Source: Escherichia coli (GTDB lineage Bacteria; Pseudomonadota; Gammaproteobacteria; Enterobacterales; Enterobacteriaceae). From it: a stretch of 64,000 nt of DNA. Made by a program: the position numbers. The stretch's first letter is position 1. Each line of letters starts with the position of its first letter. Shown here piece after piece: positions 15,001 to 21,000 of the stretch. The DNA lies in NCBI RefSeq assembly GCF_965641715.1, contig NZ_OZ282453.1; one strand, given 5' to 3'.

Positions 15001-18000
15001 CCGGGAAGAAGGCTGTTTAGCGTGAAATCCGCGGAATTAAGTCGAATTCTTAACCGCTCCGCAATGCTTTTGTAGATCATCTCTAGATCTCTTTTTTGCC
15101 TGCAAGCCCGGGGAATGCGCCCACAAGTTCTGCTTAATCAATTGAAAAAACATCTTTTTTTTAAAGATGTGTTCGATGCTGTGTACCTGTGCTCACAGAG
15201 GTCTACTTTTTCGCGAAAACGTAGATCTCTACCGCCCAACGAAAAGCATGAAAGCGATCACGAATCCCATTGGGTCGTCATGTTCTGCCGATCGCATCTT
15301 CCTATCCTCGCTCCAGGCCTGCCGCATAACCAATCAGGCTTCCTACTTACAGAATTGAGAAAAGAGGATGTGGAAATGCTCAGTCAAATTCAACGCCTTG
15401 GCGGCGCGATGTTCACGCCAGTGCTGCTGTTTCCCTTCGCCGGGATTGTGGTGGGTCTTGCCATCTTGCTGCAAAACCCGATGTTTGTCGGGGAATCACT
15501 GACCGATCCAAACAGTTTATTCGCGCAAATCGTACACATTATTGAAGAGGGCGGTTGGACGGTATTCCGTAATATGCCGCTGATTTTTGCTGTCGGTTTA
15601 CCCATTGGCCTTGCTAAGCAAGCGCAGGGGCGTGCTTGTCTTGCGGTGATGGTGAGTTTCCTGACCTGGAACTATTTCATCAATGCGATGGGAATGACCT
15701 GGGGAAGTTACTTCGGCGTCGATTTCACTCAGGACGCGGTGGCAGGTAGCGGTCTGACAATGATGGCCGGGATTAAAACCCTCGATACCAGCATTATCGG
15801 CGCAATTATCATTTCCGGCATTGTGACGGCGCTGCATAACCGTCTGTTCGATAAAAAACTGCCGGTGTTTCTCGGCATTTTCCAGGGGACGTCTTATGTG
15901 GTGATCATCGCCTTCCTGGTGATGATCCCCTGTGCCTGGCTGACATTGCTCGGCTGGCCAAAAGTACAAATGGGGATTGAATCTCTGCAAGCGTTCCTGC
16001 GTTCGGCGGGTGCGCTTGGGGTGTGGGTTTACACCTTCCTCGAACGTATTCTGATCCCAACCGGTTTACACCACTTCATCTACGGACCGTTTATCTTTGG
16101 TCCGGCAGCTGTTGAAGGCGGAATTCAGATGTACTGGGCGCAGCATCTGCAAGAGTTCAGTTTGAGCGCCGAGCCGCTGAAATCGTTGTTCCCGGAAGGC
16201 GGTTTTGCCCTGCACGGTAACTCAAAAATCTTTGGTGCTGTGGGCATTTCTTTAGCGATGTACTTCACTGCCGCACCGGAAAATCGGGTAAAAGTGGCGG
16301 GTTTGCTGATTCCCGCAACCTTAACCGCCATGCTGGTGGGAATTACCGAACCGCTGGAATTTACCTTCCTGTTCATTTCACCGTTGCTGTTTGCGGTACA
16401 CGCTGTGCTTGCGGCCTCAATGTCGACCGTGATGTATCTCTTTGGTGTGGTGGGCAACATGGGCGGAGGTCTGATTGACCAGGTTTTACCGCAAAACTGG
16501 ATCCCGATGTTCAGCAACCACGCGGATATGATGCTGACCCAAATCGCCATTGGGTTGTGCTTTACCCTGCTGTACTTCGTGGTTTTCCGCACCCTGATTC
16601 TGCAATTCAACATGTGCACGCCGGGACGTGAAGATGCGGAAGTGAAACTCTACTCAAAAGCCGAATACAAAGCCTCGCGAGGCCAAACCACCGCGGCAGA
16701 GCCAAAAAAAGAGCTGGATCAGGCTGCCGGTATCCTGCAAGCCCTGGGCGGGGTCGGCAATATCTCCAGCATCAACAATTGCGCGACGCGTTTACGTATT
16801 GCACTGCATGACATGTCACAAACGCTGGATGACGAAGTCTTTAAAAAGCTGGGAGCGCACGGCGTCTTCCGTAGTGGCGATGCCATTCAGGTGATCATTG
16901 GTCTGCATGTATCCCAGCTGCGTGAACAGCTCGATAGCTTAATTAATTCTCATCAATCAGCAGAAAATGTTGCCATTACGGAGGCAGTATAATGACCAAA
17001 TTCTCAGTGGTTGTCGCTGGCGGTGGAAGCACCTTTACGCCAGGCATCGTGTTGATGCTCCTGGCGAATCAGGACCGTTTCCCGCTTCGTGCACTGAAAT
17101 TTTATGATAACGATGGTGCGCGGCAGGAAGTGATTGCCGAAGCCTGTAAAGTCATCCTTAAAGAAAAAGCGCCGGACATTGCGTTTAGTTACACCACCGA
17201 TCCTGAAGTGGCATTCAGCGACGTTGATTTTGTCATGGCGCACATCCGCGTCGGCAAGTACCCGATGCGCGAACTGGATGAAAAAATCCCGCTGCGCCAC
17301 GGCGTTGTTGGTCAGGAAACTTGCGGACCCGGCGGAATAGCGTACGGCATGCGTTCCATTGGCGGCGTCCTGGAACTGGTGGATTATATGGAAAAATATT
17401 CACCAAATGCCTGGATGCTCAACTACTCCAACCCGGCAGCAATTGTTGCAGAAGCCACGCGTCGTCTGCGCCCGAATGCGAAAATCCTCAACATCTGTGA
17501 CATGCCAATCGGTATTGAAAGCCGGATGGCGCAAATTGTTGGGCTGCAAGATCGCAAACAGATGCGCGTGCGCTACTACGGCCTGAACCACTTTGGCTGG
17601 TGGACATCAATTGAAGATTTGCAGGGCAACGACCTGATGCCCCAGCTGCGGCAATATGTCTCTAAGCACGGTTATGTTCCACCGCAGCAAGATACGCATA
17701 CTGAAGCGAGCTGGAACGACACCTATGCAAAAGCGCGGGATGTCCAGGCACTGGACCCGGATACATTACCAAACACCTATCTGAAATATTATCTCTTCCC
17801 GGATTATGTTGTTCAGCATTCCAACCCTGAACATACCCGCGCGAATGAGGTGATGGAACATCGCGAGAAACAGGTTTTCGATGCTTGCCGCGCCATTACG
17901 GCGGCAGGAAATTCAGCGGCGGGCAAGCTGGAAATTGACGAACATGCGTCATACATCGTCGATCTGGCGGCGGCAATTGCCTTCAACACTCAGGAGCGGA

Positions 18001-21000
18001 TGTTGCTGATTGTGCCTAACAACGGGGCAATTCATAACTTTGATGATGAAGCGATGGTCGAGATCCCGTGTCTGGTCGGGCACAACGGACCAGAACCACT
18101 GGTGGTCGGCGATATCCCGCAGTTTCAGAAAGGGTTAATGAGTCAGCAAGTGGCGGTGGAAAAACTGGTCGTGGACGCCTGGGAACAGCGTTCATATCAG
18201 CACCTGTGGCAGGCGATTACGTTGTCGAAAACGGTACCGAGCGCCTCGGTCGCCAAAGCTATTCTGGATGAGTTGCTGGAGGCCAACAAAGCGTACTGGC
18301 CAGAGTTACGTTAATAGTGTGGACTGGCATCCGTTGGGTGCTGGTCCGTATTCTTTAGCACGGCTGACGGCGCATAACCAAATTTATGTTTAAAGGCTTT
18401 GCTGAAATGAAAGGAGTCGAAGAAGTTGAGCGTATCAGCGACTTCGCCAACCGAGTTTCCTTGTTGCTTTAATAGCGATAGCGCCAGATCCAGACGCGCA
18501 TCGAGGTAATATTCTTTCGGCGTCTTTCCGGTATAGCGTAAAAACAGACGACGCAACCAGGCTTCGCTACAGGGGATCGTGGCAGCCATATCGGCTACGC
18601 TCCAGCGTTGTTGCAGACTGGCATGTAAAGTGGCAATTAATTTTTCAATTTGCCGCCGTTGTGGATCTTTTTTACCGTCTGCGTACATAAGACAAATCCA
18701 CTGATAAATAATTTTCGTCAGAAAAGCGACTGCCAGATTATTTTTTATTGCTTCTGGTGAAGTTATTAACTCAGCAACTTCGGTGAGTTCCTGATTATAA
18801 ATTTCGCCATTATAAATAACGCTTTGCTGACCAACGGGAATATCCATCATACTGGTGGGGGTAAATTCCATCCAGTACTGTTCCCAGACTAAACCTTCAC
18901 AGTGATAAGAGTGAATATCCATTGGCTTTAAAAATATAATACAGTTGCCATGCAGTGTTATTTGTTCGCCATTCTTTAAAAGAATTTTCCCACATCCTTG
19001 TACGGTATACACCGCAACCCATGAGTTGGCGATAAGCGGTTTCTTCTTGTCCCGCGGCCAGATCACCCGGTAATGCTCGTCGGCGTAGGTATGCCAGAGC
19101 GAGATCAGAGAAATTCCGCTGGAGATCACATTTTCGTTAATCAATAAGGGAATATTGTATGGAGTTTCGTTTTTTACATCTGAAGTTTGCAATTTTCCAT
19201 TCATTTTAATATCCCTCCGGCGAATTATGCTCACAACCTGAACTTAACAGAAAACAATCCGTTCAGGGATACGACGTTTGTATTTTAAGAATCTGACTGC
19301 CTGACCCGACGCATTTTACCTCTCCCTATATTCATGCGTCCGGGACATAAACATAAATAAGGGCTATGAGATGAATTCGTTACAAATCTTGAGTTTTGTC
19401 GGTTTTACGCTGCTGGTGGCGATCATCACCTGGTGGAAGGTTCGCAAAACAGATACCGGATCGCAACAAGGCTATTTTCTTGCCGGACGTTCACTAAAAG
19501 CGCCGGTTATTGCCGCTTCGTTAATGCTAACCAACCTTTCCACGGAACAACTGGTCGGCCTTTCCGGGCAGGCCTACAAAAGCGGCATGTCGGTGATGGG
19601 CTGGGAAGTCACTTCTGCGGTGACGCTGATCTTCCTCGCGCTGATCTTTTTACCGCGCTATCTGAAGCGCGGCATTGCCACCATCCCCGATTTTCTGGAG
19701 GAACGTTATGATAAAACGACGCGTATTATCATCGACTTCTGCTTCCTCATTGCCACCGGCGTCTGCTTTCTGCCGATTGTTCTCTACTCCGGCGCGTTGG
19801 CGCTCAACAGCCTGTTTCACGTCGGGGAATCGCTACAGATTTCTCACGGTGCGGCTATCTGGCTACTGGTAATTTTGCTTGGTCTGGCGGGAATTTTGTA
19901 TGCGGTGATCGGCGGACTGCGCGCAATGGCAGTGGCGGACTCCATCAACGGTATTGGGCTGGTTATCGGCGGGTTGATGGTGCCGGTATTTGGCCTGATC
20001 GCGATGGGCAAGGGCAGCTTTATGCAGGGCATTGAGCAAATTACCACCGTCCACGCCGAGAAATTAAACTCAGTCGGTGGCCCGACCGATCCCTTGCCGA
20101 TTGGCGCGGCATTTACCGGTTTAATTCTGGTGAACACCTTTTACTGGTGTACAAATCAGGGCATCGTGCAACGCACGCTGGCGTCAAAAAGCCTGGCGGA
20201 AGGGCAAAAGGGGGCGCTGTTAACGGCGGTGCTGAAAATGCTCGACCCGCTGGTACTGGTGCTGCCAGGGTTGATTGCGTTTCATCTGTATCAGGATCTA
20301 CCGAAAGCCGACATGGCCTACCCGACGCTGGTCAATAACGTTCTGCCAGTGCCACTGGTGGGTTTCTTCGGCGCGGTGTTATTTGGTGCGGTGATCAGTA
20401 CCTTCAACGGCTTTCTGAATAGCGCCAGTACGTTATTCAGTATGGGTATTTACCGTCGCATCATTAACCAGAATGCCGAGCCGCAGCAGCTGGTCACCGT
20501 CGGGCGCAAATTTGGTTTCTTTATCGCTATCGTTTCGGTGCTGGTCGCGCCGTGGATCGCCAACGCGCCGCAGGGGCTGTATAGCTGGATGAAACAGCTC
20601 AACGGCATTTACAACGTGCCGCTGGTTACCATCATCATTATGGGCTTTTTCTTCCCGCGCATCCCGGCGCTGGCGGCAAAAGTGGCGATGGGGATTGGCA
20701 TAATCAGCTACATCACCATCAACTATCTGGTGAAGTTCGACTTCCATTTCCTCTATGTGCTGGCCTGTACGTTCTGCATCAACGTGGTCGTGATGCTGGT
20801 GATCGGTTTTATCAAACCGCGCGCCACGCCGTTCACCTTCAAAGATGCGTTTGCAGTGGACATGAAACCGTGGAAAAACGTCAAGATCGCGTCAATTGGC
20901 ATCCTGTTCGCGATGATTGGCGTCTATGCCGGGCTGGCTGAATTCGGCGGCTACGGTACGCGCTGGTTAGCGATGATCAGTTATTTCATTGCCGCCGTAG

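Follow-up and report, generated by a model that had tools for sequence, protein, structure and literature searches.

Genes at the glv locus

A 64,000-nucleotide stretch of DNA from an Escherichia coli genome (contig NZ_OZ282453.1 of assembly GCF_965641715.1; this whole stretch is hereafter 'the window') carries the glv operon, whose two genes encode a transporter of the phosphotransferase system (PTS) with fused IIC and IIB domains (IICB) and an enzyme of glycoside hydrolase family 4 (GH4). An initial annotation of the window proposed that both genes, disrupted in E. coli K-12, are intact in this strain and might support the uptake and cleavage of alpha-glucosides. The operon and its neighbouring regulator genes are arranged as follows.

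14364–15080, minus strand: yidP, 238-amino-acid regulator of the GntR/HutC type, with a winged helix-turn-helix and a UTRA effector domain
15376–16992, plus strand: glvCB (aglA ortholog), 538-amino-acid PTS enzyme IICB of the glucose family, alpha-glucoside subfamily, without a IIA domain
16992–18314, plus strand: glvG (aglB ortholog), 440-amino-acid GH4 protein, predicted NAD+/Mn2+-dependent 6-phospho-alpha-glucosidase
18311–19204, minus strand: yidL, regulator of the AraC type

Both the list of open reading frames (ORFs) and the raw sequence place the IICB start codon (ATG) at 15376, preceded by GAGGA at 15364–15368, from which 538 codons extend to a TAA at 16990–16992. The GH4 frame opens with the ATG at 16992–16994 and runs through 440 codons to the TAA at 18312–18314, such that the stop codon of the first gene and the start codon of the second overlap by one base (TAATG). 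A mechanical ORF start at 15115 was rejected because it marks only upstream open frame, whereas the MLSQIQR start is kept in 46 orthologs from other genera. These coordinates agree with the initial annotation, which had described an uninterrupted 538-amino-acid IICB with a CATRLR motif (residues 469–474), a 440-amino-acid GH4 enzyme following it with an overlapping stop and start, and flanks formed by the GntR regulator gene yidP and the AraC regulator gene yidL. At the downstream end of the operon, glvG and yidL are convergent and their stop codons overlap within a TTAA palindrome (18311–18314), which leaves no space for an intergenic terminator. A terminator scan yielded matches no more frequently than in shuffled sequence. 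An Rfam scan of positions 14000–19500 (E ≤ 1) returned no RNA family, and thus no known leader or riboswitch in this interval.

The IICB protein scores 958.1 bits on the NCBIfam model for alpha-glucoside IIBC proteins (TIGR02005; cutoff 607.3), with residues 2–523 covering the full model, while the glucose and beta-glucoside models give it 317 and 45 bits, respectively. Pfam domains PTS_EIIC (PF02378) and PTS_EIIB (PF00367) were detected at residues 10–346 and 453–482, respectively, and no IIA domain was found by Pfam in this ORF. Structures of E. coli PtsG determined by cryo-electron microscopy align with the protein from end to end. The alignment shows a conserved GITEP motif (GITEPLEF at residue 322) and matches Cys469 (codon at 16780–16782), within NNCATRLR, to the phospho-cysteine of PtsG in DACITRLR. 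This cysteine is invariant in the 46 orthologs, and overall identity to the Klebsiella pneumoniae transporter AglA is ~81%.

Along its entire length, the GH4 protein shares ~90% identity with K. pneumoniae AglB (PDB 6DUX; E = 1e-275, 917 bits); identity to Bacillus subtilis GlvA (PDB 1U8X; 750 bits) is ~75%. Its scores against phospho-beta-glucosidases are about four times lower (~210 bits), and those against alpha-glucosidases do not exceed 55 bits. The Pfam domains Glyco_hydro_4 (PF02056) and Glyco_hydro_4C (PF11975) occupy residues 6–184 and 195–415, and GGGSTF at residue 10 corresponds to the N-terminal GGGS dinucleotide-binding motif. By alignment, C169, D170, H200 and Y263 are equivalent to GlvA C171, D172, H202 and Y265 (GlvA numbering is offset by +2), of which we take C171 and H202 to be Mn2+ ligands and D172 and Y265 to be catalytic. 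The enzyme also carries the motif NICDMP, which is typical of phospho-alpha-glucosidases. These data support the identity of the two proteins put forward initially, as an alpha-glucoside PTS transporter and a 6-phospho-alpha-glucosidase orthologous to the K. pneumoniae pair.

Older annotation of K-12 describes GlvC as an 'arbutin-specific' permease and GlvG as a '6-phospho-beta-glucosidase', and a system specific for beta-glucosides or arbutin was therefore weighed. These older names are still in use (for example, PMC2617782, Table 5), and phospho-beta-glucosidases are also found within GH4. However, the large differences in score between the alpha- and beta-glucoside comparisons for both proteins, together with the NICDMP motif, make this specificity very improbable.

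The PGAP pipeline names the full 538-amino-acid protein 'PTS sugar transporter subunit IIB' in the RefSeq loci L001 and L004–L007. The 161-amino-acid equivalog model NF007255 represents the K-12 GlvB fragment and matches IICB residues 378–538 (window 16507–16992), and it appears that the name was derived from this pseudogene fragment via that model.

K-12 lesions and the states of the locus in E. coli

In K-12 MG1655, the locus is annotated as a 368-amino-acid glvC (b3683), a 161-amino-acid glvB (b3682) and an 815-bp glvG pseudogene (b4556), in accordance with the statement in the initial annotation that these genes are split or cryptic. The locus has the same position in both strains, with yidE and yidP on its upstream side and yidL and yidK on its downstream side. 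Nucleotide identity is 99%, and the regulatory spacer is identical except for three distal single-nucleotide differences. A global, base-by-base alignment of window positions 15081–18400 with MG1655 contains 30 substitutions and one internal indel. Within the IICB frame there are 22 substitutions, of which 19 are synonymous; the remainder are F8L (codon 8, window 15397), for which the window is the odd one out, P238Q, for which K-12 is, and C16480T. The two positions at which K-12 has lost an open frame are the following.

16480–16482, plus strand: codon 369, CAG (Gln) in the window and TAG (amber) in K-12, which splits K-12 glvC from glvB
17585–18092, plus strand: 508-bp segment comprising GH4 codons ~199–367, missing from K-12 in the alignment

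The amber codon falls within the IIC membrane domain and K-12 GlvB restarts at Met378, so that K-12 'GlvB' comprises the last IIC helix and the IIB domain. Because the length of the 508-bp deletion is not a multiple of three, the frame is shifted in addition to the loss of codons ~199–367, which include those for His200 and Tyr263. Copies of the 8-bp direct repeat GAACCACT border this segment at 17585–17592 and 18093–18100, a signature of repeat-mediated deletion. The frames of K-12 are thus neither identical to those of the window nor intact, and the window, which has CAG at codon 369 and retains 17585–18092, carries neither disruption.

Two Chi sites (GCTGGTGG) are present on the plus strand inside the operon, at 16332 and 17596, the second of which lies 4 nt within the left end of the deleted segment. 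The site at 17596 was considered as a deletion endpoint and rejected, as the junction is formed by the 8-bp repeat.

The frequency of each state was determined among 5,426 complete RefSeq E. coli genomes. Deletion junctions were counted by identity bands, the coverage threshold being uninformative in a search that joins both flanks.

Locus present: 4,267–4,284 genomes (~79%)
508-bp segment present, corresponding to full-length glvG: 1,649 genomes (30%)
Exact K-12 deletion junction: 2,642 genomes (49%)
Locus absent: ~1,150 genomes (21%)
CAG 57-mer at codon 369: 3,230 genomes (60%)
Amber 57-mer at codon 369: 348 genomes (6%)

Among the matches listed at 100% identity, the amber carriers are four laboratory strains (ER1709, ET12567, BM28 lysU and MC4100).

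Both genes are unbroken and of equal length in each of the four full-glvG genomes inspected (O157:H7 F8492, BL21(DE3), WP4-S18-ESBL-07 and G47-1), and PapRG-06-5 likewise has intact genes of this length. RefSeq labels them 'PTS sugar transporter subunit IIB' and '6-phospho-alpha-glucosidase' in O157:H7, BL21(DE3) and others. The proteins of O157:H7 and BL21(DE3) differ from those of the window by one to three residues: O157:H7 has the common IICB allele with F8, and BL21(DE3) carries L320P, which adjoins the GITEP motif, and G357S at an invariant glycine. The exact IICB protein of the window is present on 39 public contigs and the exact GH4 protein on at least 1,000. The intact state observed in the window is therefore ordinary, being common in the species and already annotated. 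The same recurrence in independent complete genomes and public contigs leaves a negligible probability that intactness is an artefact of assembly or sequencing, or that the two ORFs arose as a chance pair.

The loss in K-12 was likely stepwise, beginning with an old and widespread glvG deletion that was followed by decay of the transporter (P238Q, and the amber codon in the K-12 line). This order is suggested because the IICB ORF is unbroken in all three of the non-K-12 deletion carriers inspected; P238Q is seen in further deletion carriers besides K-12. In the one locus-absent genome inspected, yidE abuts yidL, and yidP, glvCB and glvG are gone together. This joint loss fits the published finding that phylogroup B2 specifically lacks glvC (PMC2617782, Table 5).

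Rather than simple decay, these frequencies might reflect a species-wide polymorphism with three states, in which the operon is intact, has lost the hydrolase with the transporter and regulator apparently intact, or is absent. The orphan IICB of about half of E. coli might then be retained for a hydrolase-independent role, or, alternatively, the intact form might serve niche use of dietary sucrose isomers and isomaltose in ~30% of strains, including O157:H7, BL21 and the strain studied here. Taken with either of these additions, we regard such a polymorphism as unlikely. Under the second alternative, the niche ability would have escaped notice because neither K-12 nor the B2 type strain has it.

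Mobile elements were found at two of the loci. In G47-1 (locus L007, positions 3227–5007), an IS200/IS605 tnpA remnant and a TnpB gene replace yidL through yidI beside an intact glv operon. In strain 1332KP (NZ_CM173849.1), glvG is interrupted by a TnpB element after ~256 bp of the 508-bp segment.

The divergent regulator YidP and candidate control sites

The initial annotation noted a regulator gene on each side of the operon. YidP, which differs at one residue from its K-12 counterpart, has a GntR domain (PF00392) at residues 3–64 and a UTRA domain (PF07702) at residues 87–224, and is assigned to the HutC subfamily because of this combination. A single synteny scan of species-representative genomes returned 78 loci. 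The arrangement of yidP on the minus strand with the IICB and GH4 genes on the plus strand is fixed in ~45 of these, from Enterobacterales, Aeromonas and Vibrio, often directly after yidE, and yidP is divergent from the operon in all ~45 loci with enough upstream sequence. Genera with this module include Citrobacter, Klebsiella, Raoultella, Kluyvera, Enterobacter, Kosakonia, Cedecea, Buttiauxella, Serratia, Rahnella, Proteus, Pectobacterium, Brenneria, Aeromonas and Vibrio. The IICB-GH4 pair is kept without yidP in Firmicutes and Fusobacteria.

These findings suggest that YidP is the probable cognate regulator of the glv operon; a literature search on yidP found no functional study. By comparison, yidL and yidK are located downstream in only a few of the module loci, and yidL stays with yidK and yidJ when yidP and the glv genes are deleted. 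Thus, of the two flanking regulators, yidP co-occurs with the operon across genera, whereas yidL was rejected as an operon regulator on the basis of synteny and is probably not part of the glv system.

BL21(DE3) (locus L004, NC_012971.2) has a 79-bp frameshifting deletion in yidP, equivalent to window positions 14820–14898, with its glv ORFs intact. The operon might be derepressed in this strain owing to this deletion.

The spacer between yidP and the IICB gene was aligned for 16 genera. With a mean column identity of 62%, this alignment contains four conserved islands: the ribosome-binding site and the following three elements.

15197–15230, no strand assigned: inverted repeat of 34 bp, AGAGGTCTACTTTTTCG/CGAAAACGTAGATCTCT, core GTCTAC-N14-GTAGAT, arms 88% complementary; candidate YidP operator
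15244–15265, no strand assigned: CRP-like site, AAGCATGAAAGCGATCACGAAT, with the TGA-N6-TCAC core at 15249–15261
15303–15308, plus strand: −10-like hexamer TATCCT, putative glv promoter; T233, A234 and T238 invariant in the 16-genus alignment

Of the 38 loci from other genera, 22, including that of K. pneumoniae, have the form GTCTA-N16-TAGAC of the inverted repeat at an equal distance from the ATG (about −175), and the repeat is degenerate in the rest. This conservation beside a divergent yidP makes the repeat a candidate operator for YidP. The TGA-N6-TCAC core is found in 37 of the 38 loci, mostly 124–130 nt before the ATG; wherever the inverted repeat is also found, the core follows it at a constant 48 nt. 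The bases of this core form invariant columns in the spacer alignment, and 51 bp separate the centre of the site from that of the −10-like box downstream. This arrangement resembles that of class I sites (−61.5), and we infer from its conservation and geometry that it may be bound by CRP.

In the region around the yidP start at 15071–15092, the ribosome-binding site and the initial codons (TGTAGATCAC...TAGACCTCT, plus strand) are nearly invariant in the 16 genera, synonymous positions included. TAGA and GATCAC elements within this region are similar to the candidate operator and the CRP-like box downstream, and the region may serve as an autoregulatory site.

Predicted function of the intact operon

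We consider it probable (about 0.8) that the window carries the glv (agl-type) operon of E. coli in undamaged form and that the following mechanism accounts for it as a whole. A phosphoryl group would pass from phosphoenolpyruvate through enzyme I and HPr to a IIA protein acting in trans, and from there to Cys469 of IIB. Because IICB is without a IIA domain of its own, this protein is presumed to be Crr (IIA-Glc), whose gene, crr, is not part of the window. The IIC domain would import an alpha-glucoside, which would be phosphorylated at O-6, and candidate substrates are methyl-alpha-glucoside, isomaltose, sucrose isomers (among them palatinose and turanose) and possibly maltose. The GH4 enzyme, translationally coupled to the transporter, would then cleave the 6-phospho-alpha-glucoside to glucose-6-phosphate and the aglycone by NAD+/Mn2+-dependent redox-elimination chemistry. 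Expression would probably be held off by YidP at the inverted repeat, and probably activated by CRP with cyclic AMP at the TGA-N6-TCAC site.

Among the closest known systems is AglA/AglB of K. pneumoniae (PDB 6DUX, 6DVV). The two loci share the order of a divergent GntR regulator gene, an IICB gene and a GH4 gene, an overlap of stop and start codons, and the inverted repeat and TGA-N6-TCAC at equal offsets. They differ in the length of IICB (540 amino acids in K. pneumoniae compared with 538 in E. coli), in the overlap (ATGA compared with TAATG) and in the right arm of the repeat (GTAGACAA compared with GTAGATCT). They also differ in that function has been demonstrated for the K. pneumoniae system, whereas that of E. 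coli glv is predicted. According to PMC5309279, which cites Pikis 2006 and Thompson 2001, aglA and aglB of K. pneumoniae let K-12 grow on methyl-alpha-glucoside, isomaltose and sucrose isomers, and their K-12 homologs are there regarded as cryptic or truncated. Palatinose is used by 98.9% of K. pneumoniae isolates (PMC3877295).

A more distant parallel is provided by B. subtilis GlvA (MalA; PDB 1U8X) and GlvC (MalP), which share with the window proteins ~75% (GH4) and ~60% (IICB) identity, the enzymatic chemistry and the pairing of a PTS transporter with a hydrolase. In contrast to the E. coli order, the GH4 gene comes first in the Bacillus loci and the IICB gene lies ~870 bp further downstream, and the gene between them is presumably that for GlvR, a regulator of the RpiR rather than the GntR/HutC type. 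Maltose is the physiological substrate of the Bacillus system, and a similar use of maltose in E. coli would be an extrapolation from this homolog.

Selection on the protein sequences was estimated by comparing the window with five strains that have unbroken ORFs. The resulting dN/dS values of 0.014–0.051 for IICB and 0.020–0.058 for GH4 indicate purifying selection on both genes.

Several observations weigh against a working system in this strain. An intact ORF is not proof of function, and the IICB of the window carries F8L: none of the 4,275 complete E. coli genomes carrying the locus contains the 57-mer with this change, and Phe8 is invariant in all 46 IICB orthologs from other genera. A scan with the sigma-70 consensus detected no strong promoter between yidP and glvC. 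A promoter that depends on an activator would be expected to give this result, and the evidence for the proposed glv promoter is thus its cross-genus conservation. The roles suggested for YidP and CRP are likewise read from conserved motifs. Neither expression nor growth measurements were found in the searched literature, either for this strain or for other E. coli in which the operon is intact. Standard identification tables list E. coli as negative for fermentation of alpha-methyl-glucoside. This listing would be surprising if the system were expressed and working in 30% of strains, and suggests that expression may be poor even from intact operons. Negative results for alpha-methyl-glucoside, palatinose, turanose and maltitol are recorded for the B2 type strain (PMC4334874). 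Searches of the literature on palatinose, turanose and alpha-methyl-glucoside in E. coli yielded this strain and Escherichia albertii, also negative, and none with intact glv.

F8L at an invariant residue, the negative promoter scan and the listing of E. coli as alpha-methyl-glucoside-negative accord with an alternative in which intact ORFs belong to a cryptic or impaired operon that adds no usable alpha-glucoside route to the strain. The operon may be transcriptionally silent in ordinary conditions, as are bgl, asc and chb in E. coli, or the transporter may be weakened by F8L. The AT-rich tract upstream of the promoter and the decay or loss of the locus in ~70% of E. coli also accord with this alternative. 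So does the distribution of the E. coli IICB missense variants (G39R, G167D, H233Y, P238Q, L320P, G357S, K428N and F8L): six of the eight sites are invariant across genera, compared with 39% of all positions (binomial p ~0.045), in a small and non-random sample from a handful of alleles. This excess weakly hints at relaxed constraint on IICB in parts of E. coli, even among unbroken alleles. However, dN/dS values of 0.01–0.06 point to long-term purifying selection on both genes, the exchange of Phe for Leu is conservative (PtsG has Val at the aligned position), and the regulatory motifs are identical to those kept in palatinose-positive Klebsiella. We regard a cryptic or impaired operon as possible but rather unlikely.

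If the operon does work as an alpha-glucoside system, the strain could grow on alpha-glucosides such as isomaltose, palatinose and their relatives, which occur in honey, sweeteners and starch hydrolysates. Such growth would be relevant to gut and food ecology, to metabolic models and to industrial feedstocks for which K-12 needed engineering with Bacillus genes, and K-12 is a poor reference for the pathway. The practical gain is small because intact genes are common and annotated and the defect of K-12 glv has been known for decades. What is added here are the exact coordinates of the K-12 lesions, the frequency of each state in the species, the conserved regulatory architecture and the strain-specific caveat of F8L.

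Two departures from the common module were observed in other genera. In Citrobacter braakii ATCC 51113 (locus L009, positions 3378–4998), the IICB gene is interrupted, leaving a 224-amino-acid ORF from the conserved start beside a full-length GH4 gene, so transporter decay is not confined to E. coli. In Kluyvera (loci L011 and L013) and Superficieibacter (L032), a second yidP-like gene (56–60% identity) and a second GH4 gene (85–87%) are located directly downstream of the first module, at ~6365–10270. A second IICB gene (75%) was detected in the Superficieibacter locus only, none having passed the coverage filter in the two Kluyvera loci.

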